Under the pieces are notes generated by a model. The model was given only the letters and a program-made list of their open reading frames with translations. It ran no database searches and was not told where the DNA came from. This document shows, piece by piece, positions 1-11,282 of a stretch of 11,282 bases of DNA. Source of the stretch: Miltoncostaea sp. (GTDB lineage Bacteria; Actinomycetota; Thermoleophilia; Miltoncostaeales; Miltoncostaeaceae); assembly GCA_029288175.1 (NCBI GenBank), contig JARFPS010000171.1:1-11282 (forward strand), given 5' to 3'. A program made the position numbers and the translations under genes. Position 1 is the first letter of the stretch; every line of letters starts with the position of its first letter.

Positions 1-1
1 C

Positions 2-373
2 AAGCGCACCGCGCTGACCGAGTATCCGCGCAAGGGTCGTCCCACCAAGGGCGTGCGCACCATCAAGCTGGCCGAGAACAAGGGCGGGCTCGTCGGTGCG
101 CGCACGGTGCGCGAGAACGACCAGCTGTTGCTGATCTCCAAGCACGGGCAGGTCATCCGCATCGACGTCGGCGCGGTCAAGCGCATGGGCCGGCCCACCG
201 AGGGTGTGCGGCTCATGGACACGGCGGACGACGACTGGGTCTGTGGGTTGGCCGCGGTGGACGAGCCCGACGAGAACGGCGCGCCGGAGGCGACGGACGG
301 CGGGTCGGCCCCCGACGACACGGCGAGCGACGCCGAGGTGCCGGCCGAGGAGGAGGCTCCGCCCACCGGGTGA
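2..373 (+). CDS. gyrA: Type IIA topoisomerase subunit A (DNA gyrase GyrA / topo IV ParC-like), C-terminal beta-pinwheel blade plus acidic tail; 5'-partial (runs off window start)
   Basis: The reading frame is open from base 2. The translation KRTALTEYPRKGRPTKGVRTIKLAENKGGLVGARTVRENDQLLLISKHGQVIRIDVGAVKRMGRPTEGVRLMD matches the repeated GyrA/ParC C-terminal blade pattern (..GrgtKGv..ikl.e.d.lvga..v.e.d.lllit..G.viR..v.ev..mgR.t.GVrlm). It ends in an Asp/Glu-rich tail, with stop TGA at 371-373. I cannot decide between GyrA and ParC from the sequence alone. Confidence 0.6.
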   Translation, partial: KRTALTEYPRKGRPTKGVRTIKLAENKGGLVGARTVRENDQLLLISKHGQVIRIDVGAVKRMGRPTEGVRLMDTADDDWVCGLAAVDEPDENGAPEATDGGSAPDDTASDAEVPAEEEAPPTG

Positions 374-376
374 GCT

Positions 377-391
377 CGGCGACCGGCGCCG
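377..391. terminator. Short GC hairpin (cggcg-accgg-cgccg) in the 21-bp gap between the convergent stops of the topoisomerase gene and the GalT-like gene; possible bidirectional terminator
   Basis: An inverted repeat CGGCG/CGCCG with a 5-nt loop is seen directly in the sequence. There is no U-tract, and the stem is short. Confidence 0.15.
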
Positions 392-394
392 CGC

Positions 395-1255
395 TCAGGC
401 GGCGAACGCCGGACGCAGCTCGGCGGCCACGTCCTGCGGAGCGCGGTGCGCCGCAATGACGCCAGCGCCCAGCTCGAGCCCCGCCAGAGTCCCGAGCCGG
501 GGGATCAGGTCGAGGTGCCAGTGGTACGACGGCGTTCCGCCGGGCGGGCGCTCGAACAGGCAGATGTTGACGTTCTCGGCCCCGAGCCCGCTCTCCACAG
601 CCTCCACCAGCCGCACGAGCGTCGCACCGAAGCCGGCGGCGTCGAGGCCGCTCCGCCAGTCCGGCGCCGGTCTCTCGGGCGCGACCCTGATGACCCCGGA
701 CATCGACGGTACCTCGGGACACCAGGCCACCAGGCCGGCCTCGCGGACCACGATGCGGTCGGTCGCGATGTCGTCGAGGAGCAGCCCCGCCCGCTGCGCG
801 AACGCCCGGTCGCGCGTGGCGAGCCGTCCGGGAACCATGGGCAGGCCGACGATCTGCGCATGGGTGTGGGTGAGCGATGCCCCGGCCAGTGCCCCCTGGT
901 TCAGGAAGAGATAGGGCGTCAGCCCGCGCGGGTCGTCGCCCACCGCCCGAAGTCGGTCCGCCCACACCCCCACCGCGGCCGCCGCCTCGTCGGGGGTCAG
1001 CTCGCTGAGCGACGCGAGGTGGCGCGGCGAGTTGATGACCACCTCGTGCGAGCCCTCGTCGGCCGGGACCGTGGGGAACTTGTTGGGAATGGCGCGCACC
1101 GTCCAGCCCGGCCCGTCGGCCCTACCGCCTCCCGGCCTCACGGCCTGGGTCTCCGGGGGTGTCGCGCTCTCGTTTCCCGGGCAGAACGGGCAGCCCGACG
1201 GGGAGCCCTTTCCGATGTCGTTCGGCCGCCCGGCGCGTGCAGGGGCGAGCAGCAC
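395..1255 (-). CDS. GalT-branch HIT-superfamily nucleotidyltransferase (galactose-1-phosphate uridylyltransferase / NDP-sugar phosphorylase-like)
   Basis: CPFCPGNE matches the zinc-binding CxxC motif of GalT (E. coli CFLCAGN). SPRH is an additional metal ligand. LTHTHAQIV matches the GalT active-site H-x-H-x-Q (E. coli PHPHGQIW). The annotated start is GTG at 1255. Recognisable GalT N-terminal homology (RIDPLTGEPVLLAPARAGRP, compare E. coli RYNPLTGQWILVSPHRAKRP) continues in-frame upstream to about 1294 with no ATG/GTG/TTG, so the true 5' end is uncertain. Confidence 0.75.
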   Translation of the reverse strand: MLLAPARAGRPNDIGKGSPSGCPFCPGNESATPPETQAVRPGGGRADGPGWTVRAIPNKFPTVPADEGSHEVVINSPRHLASLSELTPDEAAAAVGVWADRLRAVGDDPRGLTPYLFLNQGALAGASLTHTHAQIVGLPMVPGRLATRDRAFAQRAGLLLDDIATDRIVVREAGLVAWCPEVPSMSGVIRVAPERPAPDWRSGLDAAGFGATLVRLVEAVESGLGAENVNICLFERPPGGTPSYHWHLDLIPRLGTLAGLELGAGVIAAHRAPQDVAAELRPAFAA

Positions 1256-1290
1256 GGGCTCGCCCGTGAGGGGATCGATGCGGACCGGGG

Positions 1291-2100
1291 TCAGGAGGCG
1301 GCTCGCTCCTCGATCGCGGCCGGCCGGTCGCCGGCCTCCAGGCTGGCCTTGAGGGCCGCCATCAGGTCGACCGGGGCCGGGACCTGCTCGGTCTCGGCCG
1401 GGGTGATCGGCTCCTGTCCCGCGGCTTTGGCATCCAGGAACTCCTGCAGACGGGCGCGCGTCTCGTTCGGGTAGGCCCCGGGCTCGAACTCCTTGGTGAG
1501 GCCGTCGATCAGCTGCTCGGCCATCGACAGCTCCTCGTCGGCCACCTCGATGCCGTCCAGCCGGTCGGCGATGACGCGCTGCTCCGCCTGGCGCACGTCC
1601 TCGGGCCAGTAGAGCGTCTGCAGGGCCATCACACCGTCGACCGGCCGGAGAAGCACCAGGTGCTCGCGCGTAGAGAGCACGAACTTCCCGACCCCCGCGC
1701 GCCCCGTCCGCTCCATGGCCTCGGCCAGGAGGGCGTAGGGCCGCTCCGCCCGCTCCTGCGGCTCGATCCAGTAGGCGCGCTCGAAGAAGACCGGGTCGAC
1801 CTCTTCCAGTCGCACGAACTGAAGGATCTGGATGGTCCGCTCGTTGCGCACGGCGAAGCGGGTCAGCTCCTCCTCGTCGATCGGGATGAACCGCCCCTTG
1901 GCGACCTCGTACCCCTTGACCGTCTCGTCCCGCGGCACCTCGACGTCGCGCTCGGGGTCCCAGCGCTTCTGCTTGACCGGCTGACCGGTGGCCTTGGACA
2001 GCGTGCGGAAGCTGACGTCCTTGCGCTGCTGGGCGATGCCCACGGCCACCGGGATCGTCACCAGGCCGAACGAGATGAAGCCGTTCCAGATCGAGCGCAT
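1291..2100 (-). CDS. ku: Ku protein (bacterial non-homologous end-joining DNA-end-binding protein), minimal 269-aa form without a basic C-terminal tail
   Basis: The N-terminus MRSIWNGFISFGLVTIPVAVG is the bacterial Ku signature (M. tuberculosis Ku begins MRAIWTGSIAFGLVNVPVKV). Conservation continues through ...VDPVFFERAYWIEPQ... (Mtb VDPMMFDRSYFLEPD). Start ATG at 2100, stop TGA at 1293-1291. Confidence 0.9.
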   Translation of the reverse strand: MRSIWNGFISFGLVTIPVAVGIAQQRKDVSFRTLSKATGQPVKQKRWDPERDVEVPRDETVKGYEVAKGRFIPIDEEELTRFAVRNERTIQILQFVRLEEVDPVFFERAYWIEPQERAERPYALLAEAMERTGRAGVGKFVLSTREHLVLLRPVDGVMALQTLYWPEDVRQAEQRVIADRLDGIEVADEELSMAEQLIDGLTKEFEPGAYPNETRARLQEFLDAKAAGQEPITPAETEQVPAPVDLMAALKASLEAGDRPAAIEERAAS

Positions 2101-2130
2101 GGGGGTTCCGCTCCGGGGTGGGTCGAAAGG

Positions 2131-2970
2131 CTACCCGTGACCGTTGGGCGGAGAGCCGTCTGCGCCGACCCCGGCGCCCGTGCCGGTCTCCGCGCCCTCG
2201 CCGAGCGCGGCGCCCAGGGCACCGAGGCCCTTCATCGCTTCCATCATCTCGACCGGGAAGGGGATGATCAGGCTGCTGGTGTTGCCCGAGGAACCGATCT
2301 CGTTGACCGTCTGGAGGTAGCGCAGCTGCATGGCGCCGGCCTCGGTGGCGATGACCCGGGCCGCCTGGGAGAGCTTCTCGGACGCCTGGAACTCACCGTC
2401 CGCGGCGATGATCTTGGCGCGCCGCTCGCGCTCGGCCTCCGCCTGGCGCGCCAGGGCGCGCTGCATGTCGGTCGGAAGCTCGACGTCCTTCACCTCGACC
2501 ACGCTGACCTTCACGCCCCACGGCTCGGTCTGCTCGTCGATGATCTGCTGAAGGCGGTCGTTGATCTGGTCGCGCTCCGAGAGCAGGTGGTCGAGGTCGA
2601 CCTGGCCGAGCACGCTGCGCAGCGTGGTCTGCGAGATCTGCGACGTGGCCACCAGGAAGTTCTCGACCTGGACGATGGCCTTCGAGGCGTCGACCACGCG
2701 GAAGTAGGCGACCGCGTTGACCTTGACGGTGACGTTGTCGCGGGTGATGACCTCCTGCGGCGGCACGTTGAGCGTGACCGTCCGGAGGTCCACCTTCACG
2801 GCCTTGTCGATGAAGGGGATCAGGATGAACAGCCCCGGCCCCTTGATGCCGATGAGCCGACCCAGTCGGAAGACCACCCCGCGCTCGTACTCGCGGGCCA
2901 CCTTCACGGCCGCGAACAGGAACATCAGGGCGACCGCCAAGATGATGATGATCGCGATGAGGGCGCCCAT
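2131..2970 (-). CDS. SPFH / Band-7 (stomatin-prohibitin-flotillin-HflK/C) family membrane protein
   Basis: There is an N-terminal hydrophobic anchor ([18 protein letters not shown]). This is followed by [14 protein letters not shown]...PFID...VDLR, typical of the start of the SPFH domain. Next comes a coiled-coil region rich in [12 protein letters not shown], then a Gly/Ala-rich tail. An AAGGAG ribosome-binding site lies 7 nt upstream of ATG 2970 on the minus strand. Confidence 0.85.
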
Positions 2971-3078
2971 GCCACGCTCCTTGATCGGGGTTCGGGGGCT
3001 CCGCCATCACAGATTGAAGCACGAACGGAGCGATTCTCGCGGTCATCCGTCGCCCGTTTGGGCTAGCATTGCGCCGCT
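2971..3078. promoter_or_regulatory. Divergent intergenic region (108 bp) expected to hold promoters for the minus-strand SPFH-ku-HIT genes and the plus-strand fab operon
   Basis: This is the only non-coding stretch longer than 40 bp in the first 10 kb, and it is flanked by divergent gene starts. A candidate -10-like hexamer TAGCAT sits at 3064-3069. Imperfect inverted repeats (cgaacgga/tccgtcg at about 3022-3053; gggct...agccc at 3060-3086) could be operator sites. I cannot verify any of these as real sites from sequence alone. Confidence 0.35.
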
Positions 3079-3534
3079 TTGAGCCCCGGTGAACCCCGTT
3101 CTGTGGCTCCTACCGAGCTTCTCCCCCACCGGCCACCGTTCCTGTTCGTCGACGAGATCGTCGACCTCCGACCGGGGGAGTCGGCCCGTGCCCGGTGGTA
3201 CGTCGATCCCGATGCGGCCTTCTTCGAGGGCCATTTCCCGGGGAACCCCATCCTCCCGGGGGTGATCATCGTGGAGGCGCTCGCACAGACCGGCGCCCTG
3301 GCGGCGCTGGCCGATCCCGAGACCGAAGGAAAGCTCGCCCTGTTCGCCGGTATCGACAAGGTGCGCTTCCGCAGGCCGGTGCGCCCCGGCGACACCCTGG
3401 ACATGGAGACCGCCCTCACGCGCAGGCGTGGCCCCGTGGGCGAGGGGAAGGGAGCCGCGGTGGTCGGCGACGAGAGGGCGTGCGAGGCCGTCGTGAGGTT
3501 CGCACTGGTCGACGTCGACGAGGCGACGACATGA
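3079..3534 (+). CDS. fabZ: 3-hydroxyacyl-ACP dehydratase FabZ
   Basis: LLPHRPPFLFVDEI, HFPGNPILPGV and IVEALAQTG match the FabZ/FabA hot-dog fold, including the active-site His region (E. coli LLPHRFPFLLVDRV ... [20 protein letters not shown]). The start is either TTG 3079 or GTG 3103. Stop TGA 3532-3534 overlaps the fabH ATG as ATGA. Confidence 0.88.
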   Translation: MSPGEPRSVAPTELLPHRPPFLFVDEIVDLRPGESARARWYVDPDAAFFEGHFPGNPILPGVIIVEALAQTGALAALADPETEGKLALFAGIDKVRFRRPVRPGDTLDMETALTRRRGPVGEGKGAAVVGDERACEAVVRFALVDVDEATT

Positions 3535-4553
3535 TCGCGGTCCGCAACGGCTCGCGGGCGCGCGCCCGACTCGTGGCGCTCGGGGCGCACGTGCCGGAGC
3601 GTGTCGTGACGAACGCCGAGATCGAGACATGGGTGGACACCACCGACGAGTGGATCACCACTCGCACCGGCATTCGTGAGCGCCGCTTCGTGGCCGAGGA
3701 CGAGGCGGCGAGCGATCTCGGCGTCGTGGCCGCCGAGCGCATCCTCGACGAGGCCGGGATGGCCGCGGCGGACGTCGACGTGCTCATCGTGCCCACGGCC
3801 AGCCCCGACCACATCTTCCCGTCGACGGCCGCCCTGGTGGCCGACCGCATCGGCGCGCACAAGGCTGCGGCCTTCGATCTGAACGCCGGCTGCACCGGGT
3901 TCGTCTACGCCCTGGCCCAGGCCTGCGCCCTCATCGAGTCGGGGATCGGGCGCAACGTGCTGGTGGTGGGGGCCGAGGCGCTGAGCCGCCTGATGGACCC
4001 CACCGACCGCAGCACGTGCATCCTGTTCGGCGACGCCGCCGCGGGCGCCTTGCTGGTGGCCGAGGAGGCGGATGCGCAAGGGGTCACCGGCTTCCTCGGC
4101 TTCGAGCTCGGCGCCGACGGCTCGGGCGGGCACGATCTGGTGGTCCCGGCGGGTGGCAGTCGTCAACCGCTCGGTGCGGTGGACGCTCCCGGCGATGCCT
4201 GCATCCAGATGAACGGCCGGGAGGTGTTCAGGTTCGCCACGCGGGTGATGGTCGACTCGTGCACCCGCATGCTCGAGGCGGTCGAGATGGGCATCGACGA
4301 GGTCGATCTGCTCATCGCCCACCAGGCCAACAGCCGCATCATCGACCACGCGGTTCCCAAGCTCGGCATCGACCCCGAGCGGGTGCTCAACAACCTCGAC
4401 CGCTACGGCAACACGAGCTCGGCCTCCATCCCGCTGGTGCTGACCGAGGCCCGTGACGACGGACGGCTTGAGCCGGGCCACCTGATGCTGCTGGTCGCCT
4501 TCGGCGCCGGCCTGACCTGGGGATCGACATTGGTGAGGTACGAACCCGCATGA
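3531..4553 (+). CDS. fabH: 3-oxoacyl-ACP synthase III (KAS III) FabH
   Basis: The protein aligns along its full length to FabH: VVTNAEIETWVDTTDEWITTRTGIRERRF; catalytic Cys in AFDLNAGCTGFVYAL; His in LIAHQANSRI; Asn in RYGNTSSASIP; C-terminal FGAGLTWGS. The start ATG at 3531 overlaps the fabZ stop as ATGA. The six-frame ORF extends upstream to 3195, but that stretch is antisense, non-coding-looking sequence. Confidence 0.92.
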   Translation: MIAVRNGSRARARLVALGAHVPERVVTNAEIETWVDTTDEWITTRTGIRERRFVAEDEAASDLGVVAAERILDEAGMAAADVDVLIVPTASPDHIFPSTAALVADRIGAHKAAAFDLNAGCTGFVYALAQACALIESGIGRNVLVVGAEALSRLMDPTDRSTCILFGDAAAGALLVAEEADAQGVTGFLGFELGADGSGGHDLVVPAGGSRQPLGAVDAPGDACIQMNGREVFRFATRVMVDSCTRMLEAVEMGIDEVDLLIAHQANSRIIDHAVPKLGIDPERVLNNLDRYGNTSSASIPLVLTEARDDGRLEPGHLMLLVAFGAGLTWGSTLVRYEPA

Positions 4554-5464
4554 TCGCCGTGATGTTCCCCGGACAGGGCGCCCAGACGGTCGGCATGGGC
4601 CACGATCTGGCCGACGCCTACGCCGTCGCCCGCGAGACCTTCGAGGAGGCCGACGACACGCTCGGCTACGCGTTGTCGGCGGTGTGCTTCGAGGGCCCGG
4701 CCGAGCGACTGACCCAGACCGACGTCTGTCAGCCGGCGCTGGTCGCCACCTCGATCGCGGCCTACCGGGTCGCGCGCGCCGAGGGTCTCGTCGCCGATGT
4801 GGTGCTGGGCCACTCGCTGGGCGAGTACAGCGCGCTCGTCGCCTGCGGCAGCCTCCCGTTCGATGCCGCGATCCGTCTGGTCGCCGAGCGGGGAGCGGCC
4901 ATGCAGGAGGCGGGGGACGCCACACCGGGGGCGATGGTCGCCCTGATCGGACTCGAGGACGACGCCGCCGAGGCCCTGTGCGCCGAGGTCGGCGACGTCT
5001 GGCCCGCGAACTTCAACTGCCCGGGCCAGGTGGTCGCTTCGGGGCGTGAGGAGGCTGTGGACCGGCTGGTGCGGCTTGCGGGAGAGCGCGGGATCAAGTG
5101 CGCCCGGCTCGCGGTCAGCGGCGCGTTCCACAGCCCCCTGATGGGTCCCGCGGCGGATCGCTTGGCGCCTGCGCTCGACGCCTGGGAGCCGGCCGAGCCG
5201 GACCCCCCGTTCCTGTCCACCACGACGGCCGCCCGGGAGACGACCGATCGCCTGCGACCGGTGCTGCTCGATCAGCTCACCAGCCCCGTCCGCTTCGGGG
5301 CGGCCGTCGAGGTCGCGCTGGCGGACGGTGCCGAACGCTTCGTCGAGGTCGGTCCCGGCAAGGTCCTCTCCGGTCTCGTCCGCCGCGTGAGGCGCGGTAC
5401 CGCCACCCTGCAGATCGGCGAGCCGGGGGACATCGCGGGCCTGGCCGACCTGACCGTCGCCTGA
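4550..5464 (+). CDS. fabD: Malonyl-CoA:ACP transacylase FabD
   Basis: MFPGQGAQ at the N-terminus. GHSLGEYSAL carries the catalytic serine (GHSxG). The gene is about 300 aa. Its start overlaps the fabH stop as ATGA. Confidence 0.92.
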   Translation: MIAVMFPGQGAQTVGMGHDLADAYAVARETFEEADDTLGYALSAVCFEGPAERLTQTDVCQPALVATSIAAYRVARAEGLVADVVLGHSLGEYSALVACGSLPFDAAIRLVAERGAAMQEAGDATPGAMVALIGLEDDAAEALCAEVGDVWPANFNCPGQVVASGREEAVDRLVRLAGERGIKCARLAVSGAFHSPLMGPAADRLAPALDAWEPAEPDPPFLSTTTAARETTDRLRPVLLDQLTSPVRFGAAVEVALADGAERFVEVGPGKVLSGLVRRVRRGTATLQIGEPGDIAGLADLTVA

Positions 5465-6201
5465 TGCCGACCGCGCTCGTCACGGGGGCCTCACGCGGGA
5501 TCGGCGCCGCCATCGCGCGCGCCCTCTCCGAGGAGGGCTTCGACGTCGCGGTGGGGTACCGGTCGGACGAGGAGGGCGCGCGGGCGACCGCGGCGGCGGT
5601 CGAGACGGCCGGGCGCCGGGCCAGCGTGCACGGTGGCGACATCGCCGACGCGGATGCGGCGGCGGCCCTCGTGGAGGGCGCCGAGGAGGCCCTCGGCCCG
5701 CTTGATGCGCTGGTTCTGAACGCAGGCGTGACGGCCGACGCGCTCGCCGTCCGCATGTCGGCCGAGGACTGGGGCTCGGTCATCGACACCAACCTGACGG
5801 GCGCCTTCAACGTGGTCCGTCCCGCGCTCCGCGGGATGATGCGCCGACGCGAGGGGAGCATCGTGGCCGTCTCGTCCGTCGTCGGGCTGACGGGCAACGC
5901 GGGCCAGTGCAACTACGCGGCCGCCAAGGCCGGTCTCATCGGCCTCGTCCGGTCGCTCGCGCGCGAGACGGGGGGTCGCGGCGTGCGGGTCAACGCGGTG
6001 GCGCCCGGCTACATCAGCACCGACATGACCGCCGGCCTGTCCGAGGAGCAGCGCGAGGCCATCCTCGGGGCCACCCCACTGGGCCGGCTGGGCGAGCCGG
6101 AGGACGTGGCCGGCGCGTGCGCATTCCTCTGCTCGCCCGAGGCCGCCTTCGTCACCGGGGCCGTCCTCACCGTCGACGGCGGCCTCGCCATGGGATCGTG
6201 A
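5464..6201 (+). CDS. fabG: 3-oxoacyl-ACP reductase FabG (SDR family)
   Basis: ALVTGASRGIGAAIA is the Rossmann TGxxxGIG motif. LVLNAGV is the NAG motif. S...NYAAAKAG provides the YxxxK catalytic residues. The product is 246 aa. Start ATG at 5464 overlaps the fabD stop as TGATG. The six-frame ORF extends upstream to 5098 in frame, but that stretch lies inside fabD. Confidence 0.88.
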   Translation: MPTALVTGASRGIGAAIARALSEEGFDVAVGYRSDEEGARATAAAVETAGRRASVHGGDIADADAAAALVEGAEEALGPLDALVLNAGVTADALAVRMSAEDWGSVIDTNLTGAFNVVRPALRGMMRRREGSIVAVSSVVGLTGNAGQCNYAAAKAGLIGLVRSLARETGGRGVRVNAVAPGYISTDMTAGLSEEQREAILGATPLGRLGEPEDVAGACAFLCSPEAAFVTGAVLTVDGGLAMGS

Positions 6202-6205
6202 GGCG

Positions 6206-7468
6206 ATGAGCGCGCCTCCACTCGATCAGCGCGTCGCCGTCACCGGGCTCGGCGTCGTGAGCCCCCTGGGCATCGGCGTCGACGCCACCTGGGCGGGCGC
6301 GACCGCGGGTGTCAGCGCGGCCGGCCCGATCACGCTCTACGACCCCTCGGAGACCCACACCACGATCGCCTGCGAGGTCAAGGACTTCGAGCCCGGTGAC
6401 CACATGCCGTCGCGGATCGCGCGGCGCATGGAGCGGTTCGCCCAGTTCGGCGTGGCGGCCGCCCGCATGGCCCTCGAGGACGCGGGGCTCAGCCTTGACG
6501 GCGCCGCGCGCGATCGCGCCGGCGCGATCGTGGGCAGCGGCATCGGCGGCCTCCGCTCGTTCGAGGTCCAGTCCGAGATCATGGCCGAGCGCGGCCCCAC
6601 GCGGCTGTCGCCGCTGTTCATTCCGTTGATGATCGCGAACATGGGCGCCGCCCAGATCTCGATGGAGCTCGGTCTGCGCGGACCGCTGTCGTGTGTCTGC
6701 ACCGCGTGCGCGTCGGGCAACCACGCCATCGGCGACGCCGCCGCGGCCATCCGTCGCGGGGACGCGGACGTCATGTTCGCCGGCGGCGCCGAGGCCACGA
6801 TCACCCAGATCGGCATCGGCGCCTTCAACGCCATGCGCGCCCTGTCGACGCGCAACGACGACCCGGAGGCCGCCAGCCGCCCGTTCGATGCGGATCGCGA
6901 CGGGTTCGTCATGGGCGAGGGCGCGGGGCTCCTTCTGCTCGAGCGAATGGATCAGGCGGTGGCCCGCGATGCCGAGATCTACTGTGAGCTCGTCGGCTAT
7001 GGGGCGACGGGCGACGCCCATCACCTCACCGAGCCCGATCCCACCGGCGAGGCGCCGGCGCGGGCCATGACGATGGCGCTCGAGCGCGCCGGGGTCACGC
7101 CCGAGGAGGTCGGATACGTCAACGCCCATGCCACGGCGACCCCGGTGGGCGACACCAGCGAGCTCGCCGTCCTGCGCATGGCCCTCGGCGACGCGGCCGC
7201 AACGACCCCCGTGAGCTCCACCAAGTCGATGCACGGGCACTGCCTGGGCGCGGCCGGCGGCATCGAGGGCGTGCTGACCGTCAAGGCCATGAAGGAAGGG
7301 CTCATCCCGCCGACCATCAACCTGGACAACCTCGATCCCGATTGCGAGGGGGTCGACCATGTGGCCAACGAGGCCCGGCCGGCCACGGTGGACGTGGCGG
7401 TGTCGAACGGGTTCGGGTTCGGCGGGCACAACGCGGTGATCGTGATGCGCCGGGCGGAGGACGCATAG
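6206..7468 (+). CDS. fabF: 3-oxoacyl-ACP synthase I/II (KAS II) FabF
   Basis: VAVTGLGVVSPLG at the N-terminus. Catalytic Cys in CTACASGNHAIGDA. His in NAHATATPVGD. His in KSMHGHCLGAAGG. C-terminal NGFGFGGHNA. The product is 420 aa. There are only 4 bp after the fabG stop, so there is no room for acpP. Confidence 0.92.
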   Translation: MSAPPLDQRVAVTGLGVVSPLGIGVDATWAGATAGVSAAGPITLYDPSETHTTIACEVKDFEPGDHMPSRIARRMERFAQFGVAAARMALEDAGLSLDGAARDRAGAIVGSGIGGLRSFEVQSEIMAERGPTRLSPLFIPLMIANMGAAQISMELGLRGPLSCVCTACASGNHAIGDAAAAIRRGDADVMFAGGAEATITQIGIGAFNAMRALSTRNDDPEAASRPFDADRDGFVMGEGAGLLLLERMDQAVARDAEIYCELVGYGATGDAHHLTEPDPTGEAPARAMTMALERAGVTPEEVGYVNAHATATPVGDTSELAVLRMALGDAAATTPVSSTKSMHGHCLGAAGGIEGVLTVKAMKEGLIPPTINLDNLDPDCEGVDHVANEARPATVDVAVSNGFGFGGHNAVIVMRRAEDA

Positions 7469-7521
7469 CGATCGGCGCGATCGATCCGCTGCGCTCGCTG
7501 ATCTTCCGCGCCAGCGACCTG

Positions 7522-8022
7522 GTGTACCGCCCACCGGCGAGCCGCCGGGGCTGGACGTGGATCGGGGACGGTCGCCTCGCGATCGGGGCGAAGCCCGGCC
7601 CGGACGACATCGGGCGGCTCGCGGACGACGGGGTGACGCACATCGTCAACTGCCGGGCGCGCGAGCAGCACCTGATCTCCCAGGATCTCTGGATGGAGCA
7701 GCGCGCCCTCGGCGAGGGCCGAGTCGTCGCGGCGCCGATGTGGGACCACGGGCGACCTCAGGACCCGCGGCGATGGGCGCCGGCGGCAGAGTTCGCCGCC
7801 GCCGCGCTCGCCGACCCCGGCGCGCGCGTGCTGGTGCACTGCCAACAGGGCCGCCGGCGCTCGGCCATGGTGGCCTACGCCGTGCTGCGCTTGGGGGGCG
7901 TGTCCGAGTCGGAGGCGGCGCGCACGATCCTCGAAGGGCGCCCGGTCACGAGCATCGTGCCGGCGTACCGGGCGTCGGTCGAGGGGTGGCTGTCCGCGCG
8001 GGACACCCCGACGCTGCAATAA
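7522..8022 (+). CDS. Dual-specificity (Cys-based, CX5R) phosphatase-like protein, PTPMT1/DSP-like; start codon uncertain
   Basis: The P-loop VLVHCQQGRRRSAMVAYAVL matches the HCxxGxxRS active site (CX5R), as in PTPMT1 HCKAGRSRS. A candidate general-acid Asp lies in PMWDHGRPQD about 35 residues upstream. The domain core begins around DGVTHIVNCRAREQ. GTG 7522 is the only canonical in-frame start after the fabF stop (7466-7468). The six-frame ORF begins at ATG 7342, but that would overlap fabF by 126 nt. A GGAGG at 7456-7460 precedes a non-canonical ATC at 7471. Confidence 0.6.
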   Translation: MYRPPASRRGWTWIGDGRLAIGAKPGPDDIGRLADDGVTHIVNCRAREQHLISQDLWMEQRALGEGRVVAAPMWDHGRPQDPRRWAPAAEFAAAALADPGARVLVHCQQGRRRSAMVAYAVLRLGGVSESEAARTILEGRPVTSIVPAYRASVEGWLSARDTPTLQ

Positions 8023-8031
8023 TCGCGGACG

Positions 8032-9021
8032 ATGCCGCCCCATATCCACATCTCGGTGGACCGCCTGCGCCGCCGCCGGTCCACGCCGCCCTCCAAGAAG
8101 CCCGTGGGAGACGGCAAGGCCTGCAAGGCGTGCGGGGCGCACTTCCGCGCGGAGGAGCTCGAGCGCAACTGGGGCGTGTGCACGACCTGCGACCATCACT
8201 TCCCGGTCTCGTCGAGCGAGCGCATCACGCAGCTGGCCGACGGCGACGAGTGGCGCGAGCTCTGGTCCGAACTGGCCGCCACGGACCCTCTGCGGTTCAC
8301 CGATCTGGTCCCCTACACGGAGCGCGTCGAGCAGGCCGAGGCCAAGGGTGTCCGAGAGGCCCTCGTCGTGGGTGAGCTCAGCGTCCAGGGCGTCCCGTCG
8401 CTGGCGGCGGTCATGGACTTCGGCTTCCTGGGCGGCAGCATGGGCTCGGTGGTCGGCGAGAAGTTCGCCCGCGCAGCGGACCGCTGCGTCGAGACCGGTC
8501 GCCCGCTGAGCGTCATCACCGCCTCCGGCGGCGCGCGGATGCAGGAGGGTGTCATCGCGCTGATGCAGATGGCCAAGACGGTGGTGGCGATCGACGACCT
8601 CCGTGAGGCGGCGATCCCGGTCGTGGTCGTCCTCGCCCACCCCACCACCGGCGGCGTCTGGGCCTCCTTCGCCTCGATGGGCGACTTCACCTACGCCGAG
8701 CCGGGCGCGCTGATCGCGTTCTCGGGCCCCCGGGTCATCGAGCAGACCACCCGCGAGAAGCTGCCCCCGGAGTTCGGCCTGGCCGAATCCCAGCTCGAGA
8801 ACGGCCAGGTGGACGCGGTGGTCGATCGCCGCGAGCTTCCGGGTCGCATCGGGTCGGTCCTGAACATCCTCGACCGCCCGCGAGCCGACATCGACGACGG
8901 CGCCGGCCGCATCGCCCGCCAGGGCCGCGAGCGCGCTTCCCGCGCGGCCCAGGCCCTGCCCAAGCTCTCGCGGCGCCTGCGCGGGCGCCTGGGCACCGGG
9001 TCGGACGGGGGCGCCGAGTGA
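8032..9021 (+). CDS. accD: Acetyl-CoA carboxylase carboxyltransferase beta subunit AccD
   Basis: The N-terminal zinc ribbon CKACGAHFRAEELERNWGVCTTCDHHF aligns with E. coli [27 protein letters not shown]. It is followed by a crotonase-fold carboxyltransferase domain (GGSMGSVVGEKF, ASGGARMQEG). The start lies 9 nt after the phosphatase stop. Confidence 0.92.
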   Translation: MPPHIHISVDRLRRRRSTPPSKKPVGDGKACKACGAHFRAEELERNWGVCTTCDHHFPVSSSERITQLADGDEWRELWSELAATDPLRFTDLVPYTERVEQAEAKGVREALVVGELSVQGVPSLAAVMDFGFLGGSMGSVVGEKFARAADRCVETGRPLSVITASGGARMQEGVIALMQMAKTVVAIDDLREAAIPVVVVLAHPTTGGVWASFASMGDFTYAEPGALIAFSGPRVIEQTTREKLPPEFGLAESQLENGQVDAVVDRRELPGRIGSVLNILDRPRADIDDGAGRIARQGRERASRAAQALPKLSRRLRGRLGTGSDGGAE

Positions 9022-9956
9022 GCCGCCTCACGCGCCGCCTCACAGGCCGCTCCGAGGAGGCCGAGCCGCAGGATCGAGACGAGGTCTGGGAGGCGATCCA
9101 GCTCGCGCGCCACCAGGACCGCCCCTACCCACTCGACTACATCGATCGCCTCATGACCGACTTCGAGGAGATCCACGGCGACCGCCTGTTCTCCGACGAT
9201 CCCGCCCTGGTGTGTGGCATCGGGCGCTACCACGGTCGGCCGGTGGCGGTCATCGGGCATCAGAAGGGCCGGGACACCAACGAGCGCACCTACCGCAACT
9301 TCGGCATGCCGGGTCCGGAGGGCTACCGCAAGGGCATGCGCCTGATGGAGCTCGCCGAGAAGTTCGACCTCGACCTCGTCACCCTGATCGACACGCCCGG
9401 GGCGTACCCCGGCGCCGGAGCCGAGGAGCGGGGACAGGGGGGCGCCATCGCCCGCAGCATGCAGACCATGCTGCGTCTTCGCCCGCCGACCGTCGCGGTG
9501 GTCATCGGCGAGGGGTCGTCCGGCGGAGCGCTGGCGCTCGGCGTCGCCGACCGCGTGGTCATGCTCGAGAACACGACGTACTCGGTCATCTCGCCCGAAG
9601 GCGGCTCGGCCATCCTCTGGCGCGACGCCGGCAAGGCGCGGGACGCTGCCGCGGCCTTCAAGCCCACGGCGTCGAACTGCTACCGCTGGGGCGTCGCCGA
9701 CGCCGTCGTGCCGGAGCCGGCCGAGGGAGCCCATGCCGACGCCGACGAGGCCGCCCGCCTGCTCGACGCCTATCTCGAGCGCACGCTGCGGGAGCTCCGA
9801 CGCGTCGACGTCGGCCAGCGCCTGGCTCGTCGCAAGGAGCGGTTCCGCCGCATCGGCACGTTCCGCGAAGGCCCCCACGAGGGGCAGGTGCCGCTCGCCG
9901 ACCCGCCAGCCGATTCGGCGAGCGAGACGTCGAACGGGCAGCCCCCCGCGAGCTGA
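9018..9956 (+). CDS. accA: Acetyl-CoA carboxylase carboxyltransferase alpha subunit AccA
   Basis: QLARHQDRPYPLDYI, VIGHQKGRDTNERTYRNFGMPGPEGYRKGMRLMELAEKF and IDTPGAYPGAGAEERGQGGAIAR are near-identical to E. coli AccA motifs. GTG start at 9018 overlaps the accD stop as GTGA. The N-terminus is about 50 aa shorter than E. coli AccA and there is a short Pro/Ser-rich C-terminal tail. Confidence 0.92.
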   Translation: MSRLTRRLTGRSEEAEPQDRDEVWEAIQLARHQDRPYPLDYIDRLMTDFEEIHGDRLFSDDPALVCGIGRYHGRPVAVIGHQKGRDTNERTYRNFGMPGPEGYRKGMRLMELAEKFDLDLVTLIDTPGAYPGAGAEERGQGGAIARSMQTMLRLRPPTVAVVIGEGSSGGALALGVADRVVMLENTTYSVISPEGGSAILWRDAGKARDAAAAFKPTASNCYRWGVADAVVPEPAEGAHADADEAARLLDAYLERTLRELRRVDVGQRLARRKERFRRIGTFREGPHEGQVPLADPPADSASETSNGQPPAS

Positions 9957-9959
9957 GGG

Positions 9960-10244
9960 TCAGATCGTCTCGAGGTCGAGTCCGTGCAGCGCGAGCTCGT
10001 CGCCCACGCCCTCGGGAAGCTGAACCTCGCCGCCGAAGGCCTCCTTGTGGAGACGCAGCGCGCGCTCGAAGAGCGCGCGGTTGGTGGGGGTGTGCTCGGG
10101 GGTGAAGTCCACCGCCAGAGCGATCTCCCGGTACCACCGCTGAAGCTCGGCGCTGGGGCGTCGATCCGGATCAACGCGCACCATGTCCATCACGAGGGCT
10201 AGGAGTCCGCGCAGGGATGCGCGCGGGTCGGGTCCCGGTGTCAT
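9960..10244 (-). CDS. Hypothetical small protein (94 aa), family not recognised
   Basis: The ATG at 10244 is preceded on the minus strand by a perfect Shine-Dalgarno AAGGAGG with 5-nt spacing (plus-strand 10250-10256 cctcctt). Stop TGA at 9962-9960. The six-frame ORF (9960..10484) continues upstream in frame, but that part is Arg/Pro-rich and overlaps the 3' end of the neighbouring gene. The sequence MTPGPDPRASLRGLLALVMDMVRV...WYREIALAVDFTPEHTPTNRALFERALRLHKEAFGGEV... has mixed, helical-looking composition. I do not recognise any motif. Confidence 0.5.
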   Translation of the reverse strand: MTPGPDPRASLRGLLALVMDMVRVDPDRRPSAELQRWYREIALAVDFTPEHTPTNRALFERALRLHKEAFGGEVQLPEGVGDELALHGLDLETI

Positions 10245-10306
10245 CTGAGCCTCCTTGCTCGTCTGAAGGCGCAGGGCATCCCGCCGTGCGCCGTTGGTCG
10301 TGCAGC

Positions 10307-10322
10307 GGACCATCCGTGGTCC
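10307..10322 (-). terminator. Perfect 6-bp inverted repeat hairpin (GGACCA-tccg-TGGTCC) 20 nt downstream of the lipid-kinase stop; possible terminator or attenuator between the kinase gene and the small ORF
   Basis: The palindrome is seen directly in the sequence. There is no U-tract, which is common for actinobacterial terminators. It is also compatible with a protein-binding palindrome. Confidence 0.2.
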
Positions 10323-10342
10323 TTCCGCGTGGAGGTCGGCTC

Positions 10343-11282
10343 CTAGGGGGGCGACTTGAGGGGCGGGGCGGCGGATGGTCCCGGCGGGACCAGCACCCGG
10401 AGGGTGGGGCCGGCCGCGAACAGGACCGAGCCGTGCGAGCCGAGCGGCTCGCCGTCGGCCTGAACGGCGACGGCGCGGTCGCACTCCACCTCGATCGCGG
10501 TCGCGTGGCCGGCCGCCATTCGCCCCGAGCCGAGATGCCGGGCGGTGCCCCGGATCGATTCGGCGGCCAGTTCCGCCAGGCGGGCGGGCGTGATCTCAGG
10601 CATCGCCAACCAGGCCAGCACCCCGTCGAAGGCCGCGGCCGGCAGGGCGTGGACGGCGCGCGGACCCAGGTACGTGTAGGGGGACCCCACGGCCACGGCC
10701 AGCGCGGCGGCGGTCAGCCGCGGCCCGCCGGCGACCCGCACCGACAGGACGGGGGGGTCGCGCAGCGCGCGGGACGCCGCCACGCTCGCGCCGATCCCGA
10801 ACGCGGCCTGTCGAAGGCGCGCCTTCACGTTCGGCCGGGTCTCAACCCACTCCACCACCTCGGCGTCGATGCCCACGCCGGCATTGGCGATGAACGGGCG
10901 TCGCCGGGAGCCGGTCGTGACCTCGCCCACCGTCGCCTCCCGGACGATCCCGGCGGCCAGGGCCGGTGCGAGGGCCTGGGCCGCCCTGGTGCTCGACGCC
11001 GGCCACCCGAGCGCGCGGGAGAAGATGTTCGCGCCGCCCGCGGGGACGGGCGCGACGATCAGGCCCCGACGTGCGGCCGTCTCGGCCACCTGCGTCACCG
11101 TGCCGTCGCCACCGACCGTCACCAGGACGCGCGCGCCCGCGTCGGCGGCGTCCCGGGCGAAGCGCGCCGCGTCGCCGGGACCCCGCGTAGAGCGGAGCTG
11201 CAGGAGGCCGAACGGGGTGAGCACGTCGACCACCCGCCCGATCAGCCGCGATCGCGCCCTCGTGGCGGCGGGATTCACGATC
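10343..11282 (-). CDS. Diacylglycerol-kinase catalytic-domain (DAGK_cat, YegS/BmrU/Rv2252-like) lipid kinase; 5'-partial (continues beyond window end)
   Basis: RVLVTVGGDGTVTQVAE carries the GGDGT nucleotide-binding hallmark of DAGK_cat/sphingosine-kinase-like lipid kinases. The N-terminal ..NPAATRARS.. resembles the NPxSG start of the fold. Stop TAG at 10345-10343. The ORF is still open at 11282. Confidence 0.7.
   Translation of the reverse strand, partial: IVNPAATRARSRLIGRVVDVLTPFGLLQLRSTRGPGDAARFARDAADAGARVLVTVGGDGTVTQVAETAARRGLIVAPVPAGGANIFSRALGWPASSTRAAQALAPALAAGIVREATVGEVTTGSRRRPFIANAGVGIDAEVVEWVETRPNVKARLRQAAFGIGASVAASRALRDPPVLSVRVAGGPRLTAAALAVAVGSPYTYLGPRAVHALPAAAFDGVLAWLAMPEITPARLAELAAESIRGTARHLGSGRMAAGHATAIEVECDRAVAVQADGEPLGSHGSVLFAAGPTLRVLVPPGPSAAPPLKSPP

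Follow-up and report, generated by a model that had tools for sequence, protein, structure and literature searches.

A dual-specificity phosphatase gene held between fabF and accD in a Thermoleophilia fatty-acid synthesis operon: a candidate lipid-phosphate phosphatase

PTPMT1-like phosphatases show features that include a basic CX5R motif and a predicted transmembrane segment, and a bacterial PTPMT1 orthologue with proven phosphatidylglycerophosphate (PGP) phosphatase activity is found in Rhodopirellula baltica (PMC3576122). Most Actinobacteria possess PgsA but have no PGP phosphatase of the PgpA or PgpP type, and in some Bacilli pgpP is found together with pssA/psd (PMC11804483). For phosphatidylinositol phosphate (PIP), the actinobacterial phosphatase was termed 'yet-unidentified' in 2019 (PMC6506517). 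Here, we consider a gene for a dual-specificity phosphatase (DSP) that lies between fabF and accD in Miltoncostaea sp. (GenBank assembly GCA_029288175.1, contig JARFPS010000171.1, positions 1 to 11,282 of the forward strand); the whole stretch of 11,282 nucleotides is referred to as the window. The original prediction had seen in this gene a candidate PGP-type phosphatase by analogy with PTPMT1 and had called a bacterial enzyme of this kind non-canonical; in view of the R. baltica enzyme, it would have a precedent. A full-text literature search found no paper linking fabF, accD and a dual-specificity phosphatase and, to our knowledge, no DSP has previously been described as a conserved part of an operon for type II fatty-acid synthesis (FAS-II) and acetyl-CoA carboxylase (ACC).

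From its sequence and a structural model, the gene is predicted to encode a soluble, cytoplasmic, Cys-based phosphatase of the DSP fold with intact catalytic residues. The translation of the open reading frame (ORF) at 7342-8022 on the + strand contains both the P-loop VHCQQGRRRSA and, upstream of it, the Asp of PMWDHGRP, as had been read in the original prediction. The gene and its two catalytic motifs are positioned as follows, with residues numbered such that ATA 7465 is codon 1:

7465..8022, + strand: DSP phosphatase gene in its likeliest extent, as judged from homologue lengths, the starts of relatives, the modelled N-terminal helix and a synonymous excess
7732..7755, + strand: general-acid loop APMWDHGR, with the Asp94 codon at 7744-7746
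7834..7863, + strand: P-loop VHCQQGRRRS, with the Cys126 codon at 7840-7842 and Arg132 completing CX5R

When 81 sequences were aligned, H125, C126, Q127, G129, R130, R132 and S133, including the Cys and Arg of CX5R, were found to be invariant, as were A90, M92, W93, D94 and G96. D94 sits 32 residues before C126 and aligns with the general-acid Asp92 of VHR. In CQQGRRR, Arg occupies X4, X5 and the invariant position, and a motif census of representative sequences yielded HC[QHS][QA]GRRRS as the family signature, with APMWDHGR, VVNCR and LVPAYRASVExWL as further signature segments. More than 300 homologues were found (E down to 1e-105), mostly of 165-205 aa and covering 90-98% of the translation of 7471-8019. 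A second, nearly invariant cysteine, Cys63 (codon 7651-7653), lies in the motif VVNCR beside the invariant Arg64; as in some protein tyrosine phosphatases (PTPs), it may serve as a back-door or redox-regulatory residue.

The AlphaFold2 model, which was computed on the family alignment, reached a pLDDT of 95.3 and a pTM of 0.91. In this model, the P-loop is placed after the strand of residues 122-126 and before the helix of residues 131-143, and an N-terminal helix (residues 8-21, pLDDT ~95) is packed on the globular domain. As a single sequence, the protein scored 26.3 bits against Pfam DSPc (E 7e-6), below the gathering cut-off of 33.5, and the match to PTP-SAK was also weak, so that the family assignment rests on profile, fold and motif evidence. 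Pfam and NCBIfam scans gave PTP-superfamily models only, and many homologues carry precomputed PF00782 or PF22784 matches. The protein is a divergent member of DSPc (PF00782, clan CL0031) and not a non-member; the earlier assignment to the Cys-based, DSP-type phosphatases is upheld by the profile, the fold and the invariant CX5R and Asp. Public records name members either 'protein-tyrosine phosphatase' or 'dual specificity protein phosphatase family protein' and assign them no function. The protein is basic (pI 9.7; family median 9.75), and family members have a hydrophilic N-terminus rich in Arg. The gene has a GC3 of 0.92 and a codon composition like that of the adjacent genes, and can thus be considered native DNA. 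Domain fusions in distant relatives (glycosyltransferases, inorganic pyrophosphatase, tandem DSPs) were also considered as a functional clue and were set aside, as they hold nothing specific to the family.

The operon in which the DSP is found runs from fabZ to accA:

3079-3534, + strand: fabZ (Pfam match)
3531-4553, + strand: fabH, starting at ATG 3531 (Pfam match)
4550-5464, + strand: fabD (Pfam match)
5464-6201, + strand: fabG, starting at ATG 5464 (Pfam match)
6206-7468, + strand: fabF, beta-ketoacyl-ACP synthase (KAS) II (Pfam ketoacyl-synt 2e-52, Ketoacyl-synt_C 4e-36)
8032-9021, + strand: accD, carboxyltransferase beta subunit (Pfam Carboxyl_trans and an N-terminal Zn ribbon)
9018-9956, + strand: accA, carboxyltransferase alpha subunit (Pfam ACCA 1.9e-114)

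With the DSP, these make eight co-directional genes, and all seven DSP neighbours have strong Pfam matches. The DSP stop, TAA at 8020-8022, is separated by 9 nt from the ATG of accD. Coordinates and Pfam matches thus agree with the arrangement first reported for the locus.

This position is conserved among relatives. Our genome scan, in which each species was represented by one genome, yielded 43 loci with a DSP homologue (cited below by L numbers). fabF is found directly 5' of the DSP in 34 of them, belonging to Miltoncostaeaceae and to other Thermoleophilia metagenome-assembled genomes (MAGs), some of which are mislabelled. The usual order in the syntenic loci is fabZ-(fabH)-fabD-fabG-fabF-DSP-accD-accA. 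accD lies directly 3' of the DSP in most loci, a gap of 0.4-6 kb separates the two in L014, L016, L022, L023, L024 and L028, and accD was not found downstream of the DSP in L026. Unrelated genes (DUF6962, EamA, MFS, FMN reductase) fill the longer inserts; being miscellaneous transporters and DUFs, they were rejected as a clue to function. In all loci in which accD is displaced, the DSP stays next to fabF. As a search based on the DSP itself carries an ascertainment bias, an AccD-anchored scan of metagenomes was made to remove it. Here, among close relatives with an AccD identity of 57% or more and with upstream sequence present, 15 contigs were found to carry the DSP directly 5' of accD and fabF, in turn, directly 5' of the DSP. 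The conservation of the fabF-DSP(-accD) linkage, which the original prediction had proposed to examine in related genomes, is hence seen in both scans.

The start of the DSP is anomalous, as had also been noticed earlier, since TTG 7342 and GTG 7522 are the only in-frame ATG, GTG or TTG codons between 6988 and 7570. Two elements at the end of fabF should be considered in this respect:

7456..7461, + strand: GGAGGA, Shine-Dalgarno-like, 3 nt before ATA 7465 and 9 nt before ATC 7471
7465..7468, + strand: ATAG junction, in which the TAG stop of fabF (7466-7468) overlaps ATA (7465-7467)

GGAGGA, which also codes for the FabF C-terminus (..AEDA, stop), is kept at the same place in many loci (L001, L002, L010-L012, L017-L019, L025, L030, L041). 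The DSP of 19 syntenic loci has a GTG or ATG start that shares bases with the TGA stop of fabF (GTGA or ATGA) and is homologous in position to 7465. A conserved V/I/L-Y-G/R-P anchor, which corresponds to 7522 in the window, follows 14-26 codons, and usually 19-22, downstream of this start. TAG is the fabF stop in the window and in nine further loci, where the homologous codon is non-canonical, namely, ATA in the window, L007 and L020, and GTA in L001, L011, L017, L018, L025, L030 and L041. No in-frame ATG, GTG or TTG that includes the conserved N-terminus was found in L007, L011, L017, L018, L020 and L041, where re-initiation at a near-cognate codon or a CTG start may occur. As judged from substitution patterns, the codons between the fabF stop and 7522 are under protein-level (purifying) constraint: for the N-terminal codons of L011 and L017, the DSP frame has 7 differences that are synonymous and 5 that are not, versus 1-2 and 11 in the other two frames, and the window and L001 show 6 and 8-9 in the DSP frame versus 1-2 and 10-11 in the others.

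On account of the start position in relatives, this constraint and the modelled helix at residues 8-21, the protein most likely starts at ATA 7465 (185 codons) or at ATC 7471 (183 aa), the latter being shared with L001. ATC 7471 had been one of the starts offered in the original prediction, and it is retained here beside ATA 7465 at the fabF stop; the other two do not stand. TTG 7342 is not conserved in relatives, and the peptide in the overlapped region mirrors the FabF C-terminus in another frame. GTG 7522 as the main start would delete the conserved, well-modelled helix, and the codons upstream of it are constrained; the database call P0001 (GTG 7522, 166 aa) is thus probably truncated at its N-terminus. 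A FabF-DSP fusion by programmed frameshifting was also rejected, as no slippery heptamer is present, most relatives have a GTG or ATG of their own, and the one joined protein is probably an assembly frameshift. In this protein, the 576-aa public gene call P0135, the C-terminal half of FabF is followed within one ORF by the initial ~110 residues of a DSP family member, and breaks of this type are seen in the nanopore-type MAG loci L029 and L038-L043. The DSP would be co-transcribed with fabF, and its translation is presumed, from the stop-start overlap, to be coupled to that of fabF, with initiation probably occurring by termination-reinitiation at a near-cognate codon. As ATA or GTA replaces the start in about a third of the operons, these loci provide a natural test case for coupling-driven non-canonical initiation.

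As for the substrate, we lean, with considerable reserve, towards a lipid-phosphate phosphatase acting on PGP, PIP or phosphatidate. This leaning draws on the Arg-rich P-loop, which resembles the basic CX5R of PTPMT1 and PTEN, on the basic character of the protein and of its family, and on membership in the fab/acc operon with its linkage to fabF. Enzyme genes that are coupled inside biosynthetic operons usually serve that pathway, an example being plsX, which E. coli and B. subtilis carry within their fab clusters. PTPMT1 is, moreover, consistently among the nearest structures; in a Foldseek search with the model, it came first (E 4.5e-8), with DUSP28, DUSP13 and DUSP23 within a factor of three. 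A further reason is found 3' of accA, where a lipid kinase adjoins the operon:

10343-11278, - strand: lipid (diacylglycerol) kinase of the YegS/BmrU/Rv2252 type (Pfam DAGK_cat 3.5e-19; NCBIfam lipid kinase models)

This kinase is a conserved neighbour, standing second downstream ('down2') in most syntenic loci, and both module types are fused in NCBIfam PRK12361 (546 aa, 'hypothetical protein'), in which a DSP-like domain (~101-196) precedes a YegS/BmrU lipid kinase (263-541). The window DSP matches positions 101-196 of this model (E 1e-3) and the window kinase matches positions 263-541 (E 1.9e-14). Finally, a lipid substrate would suit a phylum that mostly has no PgpA or PgpP and in which the PIP phosphatase was termed 'yet-unidentified', and a DSP-type PGP phosphatase is already known from one bacterium, R. 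baltica.

Under the lipid-phosphate reading, the DSP would have been inserted at the fabF-accD junction in an ancestor of the Miltoncostaeaceae-type lineage of Thermoleophilia and kept since. It would be translated by coupling to fabF, its start in the window having degenerated to ATA, or with the nearby ATC being used instead. Cys126 would act as the nucleophile, Arg132 would bind the phosphate and Asp94 would serve as the general acid. The enzyme would thereby remove the terminal phosphate of a phosphorylated glycerolipid built from the fatty acids of the operon, with PGP and/or PIP, and possibly phosphatidate, as candidate substrates, and would resemble PTPMT1 in its action, although orthology with PTPMT1 is not demonstrable. 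The more specific proposal that the DSP is the missing PGP and/or PIP phosphatase of this lineage, that is, a soluble, Cys-based enzyme co-translated with FabF, of an independently derived PTPMT1-like class and, in a third of the genomes (the present one included), with termination-reinitiation at the fabF stop on a non-canonical ATA/GTA (or ATC/CTG) codon, must be regarded as unlikely.

Several observations weigh against a lipid substrate and should be considered together. PTPMT1 and the protein-directed DSPs are not separable by sequence or by modelled structure. The family profile gives 1.7e-9 for VHR versus 3.6e-7 for PTPMT1. hhalign gives PTPMT1 a probability of 96.5% (152 columns, including the C-terminal helix) versus 96.8% for VHR. 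In a single-sequence phmmer comparison, the solved DUSP13 and VHR were matched weakly (E 1e-4). No transmembrane segment or membrane anchor is predicted in the DSP protein. The N-terminal helix is not consistently amphipathic, its hydrophobic moment (muH) varying from 0.11 to 0.47 across the family, and the helix as an amphipathic membrane anchor was accordingly dropped as unsupported and not conserved. The PTPMT1 analogy thus holds as to the near structural match and the basic CX5R and fails in that VHR ties or does better and that the transmembrane segment is missing. Pfam scans of the window found no pgsA, cdsA or cls in the DSP neighbourhood, and the similarity of the DSP to PRK12361 is weak (E 1e-3) and generic to DSPs. 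The family is also narrow: when 1.8 billion representatives were searched, E<1e-30 was reached by only 21 clusters at 50% identity, so that the DSP cannot be the general actinobacterial PGP phosphatase.

The distribution of the gene counts on the same side. Nine of the 43 homologues lie outside the fab operon, in heterogeneous contexts (Dactylosporangium, Micromonosporaceae MAGs and other Actinomycetota), and the homologues of Dactylosporangium, Asanoa and other Actinomycetota show 51-60% identity. In addition, the metagenome scan revealed a distant group of 24 contigs (AccD 50-55%, FabF ~55% identical) with the order fabH-fabD-fabG-fabF-accD-accA and no DSP. In this group (L065-L089), whose FabF is labelled Thermoleophilia or Actinobacteria RBG_16_64_13, the ATG of accD lies inside the end of fabF, as in ATGGCTAA (L067 3985-4005, 8-nt overlap). 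As fabF and accD overlap without a DSP in this sister lineage, the DSP is read as a lineage-specific insertion into an older fabF-accD junction, whose ancestral coupling it would have interrupted. From the sequences compared, it was inserted and then retained across the clade, while the DSP proteins diverged to 55-60% identity. The linkage put forward in the original prediction is, therefore, conserved within the clade, although it does not extend to the same operon of the sister Thermoleophilia.

Protein substrates offer the main rival explanation, which we regard as possible, if on the unlikely side, and only slightly less likely than a lipid substrate. The DSP would then be a pTyr, pThr or pSer phosphatase that reverses kinase action on FAS-II/ACC proteins (FabF/KAS, FabH, FabD, FabG, AccD/AccA) and is co-expressed with its substrates. 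The nearest sequence matches are indeed protein-directed atypical DSPs (VHR/DUSP3, DUSP13, DUSP26), the N-terminal helix is packed on the catalytic domain as in VHR-type DSPs, the protein is soluble and free of an anchor, and its tightest linkage is to the KAS gene fabF. A precedent exists in Mycobacterium tuberculosis, where the FAS-II enzymes KasA/KasB, FabH, FabD, MabA and InhA are regulated by Ser/Thr phosphorylation. Phosphorylation of FAS-II is, however, not known from Thermoleophilia, Pfam scans found no protein kinase gene linked to the DSP in the window, and a regulatory phosphatase coupled to an abundant enzyme would be unusual. Moreover, the triple-Arg P-loop is atypical of the VHR type, the nearest outgroups having HCxxGxSRS or HCAAGxxRS, and homologues outside the clade are not found beside FAS genes. 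A soluble phosphatase for small molecules tied to fatty-acid synthesis, with the 2'-phosphate of NADP(H), the 3'-phosphate of CoA, 4'-phosphopantetheine, an acyl-phosphate or glycerol-3-phosphate as its target, is improbable. Although the basic P-loop would fit polyanionic ligands, a distant relative faintly matches Pfam PF22741 ('DSP-PTPase fused to NAD+ kinase') and the neighbouring lipid kinase has an NAD-kinase-like fold (PF01513, 6e-7), no single substrate is indicated, no fusion or neighbour from cofactor metabolism is conserved, and hydrolysis of NADPH, CoA or acyl-phosphate beside FAS-II would be wasteful.

It is about equally improbable that a general-purpose DSP merely rides at the fabF-accD junction for the sake of expression, with a function unrelated to lipids, such as stress signalling or sulfur transfer of the DUF442 type. 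Absence from the same operon of the sister lineage would agree with such a passenger, as would the mixed contexts in Dactylosporangium, Asanoa and other Actinomycetota, which suggest horizontal mobility, and a weak match (E 0.01-0.025) to the Blh sulfur transferase/dioxygenase in its N-terminal, DUF442-type domain. Against this, the position is held in at least 34 species-level genomes at protein identities down to 55-60%, the fabF stop and the DSP start still overlap, and the fabF linkage outlasts rearrangements that remove accD. That there is no gene here at all, the ORF being a chance product of DNA of 72% GC or a decaying pseudogene with no start, can practically be dismissed. High-GC DNA does yield long spurious ORFs, many of which appear in the ORF list of the window, and a canonical start including the conserved N-terminus was not found. 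Yet the more than 300 homologues with invariant catalytic residues, the pLDDT of 95, the GC3 shared with adjacent genes and a divergence biased to synonymous changes, including the region upstream of 7522, speak for a functional protein. Of the explanations weighed, the lipid-phosphate phosphatase is the one tentatively favoured.

The remainder of the window (72% GC overall) holds the following features:

53-373, + strand: GyrA C-terminal beta-propeller fragment, 5' of the operon
395-1255, - strand: GalT/HIT-like nucleotidyltransferase, 5' of the operon
1291-2100, - strand: Ku, 5' of the operon
2131-2970, - strand: SPFH/Band-7 protein, 5' of the operon
9960-10484, - strand: ORF unmatched in Pfam and NCBIfam, between accA and the lipid kinase

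The order Ku-SPFH-fabZ is kept in many related loci. The ORF at 9960-10484 has a core of ~60-70 aa that most of the syntenic loci share at 39-70% identity; in its listed extent, it runs ~140 nt into the kinase ORF, and its true start is probably further in. Within the operon, stop-start overlaps occur at the junctions fabZ/fabH (ATGA, 3531), fabH/fabD (ATGA, 4550), fabD/fabG (TGATG, 5464) and accD/accA (GTGA, 9018). The fabZ/fabH, fabH/fabD and accD/accA junctions have the same 4-nt overlap design as the fabF-DSP junction. The overlaps place the fabH start at ATG 3531 and the fabG start at ATG 5464 and, as read from the sequence, the entire fab/acc operon looks translationally coupled. The window operon contains no acpP, fabI, accB or accC, with fabG ending at 6201 and fabF starting at 6206, and no ACP-like DSL motif was found in any frame of the window; the operons of the sister lineage likewise have no room for acpP between fabG and fabF. 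No Rfam family and no promoter-like or terminator-like site was found flanking the DSP gene.

Around the homologues outside the fab operon, the neighbours (RHS/HEAT, SCO1/redoxin, DUF1861, methyltransferase, luciferase-like, PALP, APH, TetR, esterase) were examined as a functional clue and rejected. In two Dactylosporangium genomes, a trans-2-enoyl reductase of the FabV/TER type lies 0.8 kb and 5 kb 3' of the DSP homologue, respectively, and is the only lipid-related neighbour found outside Thermoleophilia:

L031, 9285-10484: FabV/TER-type enoyl reductase
L032, 13442-14641: FabV/TER-type enoyl reductase

The family bears on a live question, namely, which enzymes complete the synthesis of phosphatidylglycerol (PG) or phosphatidylinositol in Actinobacteria. 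If the lipid-phosphate reading is true, the last step of PG/cardiolipin or phosphatidylinositol synthesis would be identified in an actinobacterial lineage, and, on the more specific proposal of a missing PGP and/or PIP phosphatase, an operon-encoded class would be added to the bacterial Pgp enzymes in a phylum mostly devoid of the PgpA and PgpP types. The use of a Cys phosphatase on a lipid, as in PTPMT1, would then have arisen or spread in bacteria beyond Planctomycetes. If the enzyme acts instead on proteins, this would be the first case of a phosphatase built into a FAS-II operon and would point to phosphoregulation of fatty-acid synthesis outside mycobacteria. The question can be tested directly, as the proteins of the family are small, soluble and modelled with confidence, and cultured Miltoncostaea, Asanoa and Dactylosporangium carry homologues.

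When compared with the known systems, the DSP shares with PgpA, PgpB (PAP2), PgpC and PgpP (HAD) only the proposed reaction, PGP to PG, and the link to a lipid-synthesis cluster. Folds and chemistry are unrelated, with a Cys nucleophile in the DSP versus His in PAP2 and Asp in HAD enzymes. The two modules of PRK12361 are both encoded in the window, as separate genes 2.3 kb apart, yet here they are unfused and on opposite strands, and the function of PRK12361 is itself uncharacterised. The VHR/DUSP3-type enzymes (DUSP3, DUSP13, DUSP26, DUSP27, DUSP28) provide the best sequence matches, are of equal size, carry a helix ahead of the core domain and have the general-acid Asp in the aligned place (D92 of VHR for D94). 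They are, however, eukaryotic enzymes that act on MAP kinases and other phosphoproteins, have no operon context and present P-loops of the form HCxxGxSRS, with no Arg triplet. With PTPMT1, the DSP has in common a CX5R with basic residues and Arg at X4 (CKAGRSR in PTPMT1, CQQGRRR in the DSP), an Asp general-acid loop and a small, single-domain architecture. It differs in being no nearer to PTPMT1 than to VHR or DUSP28 and in having no transmembrane or membrane-targeting N-terminal segment, and it presents a signature of its own, set within a fab/acc operon.

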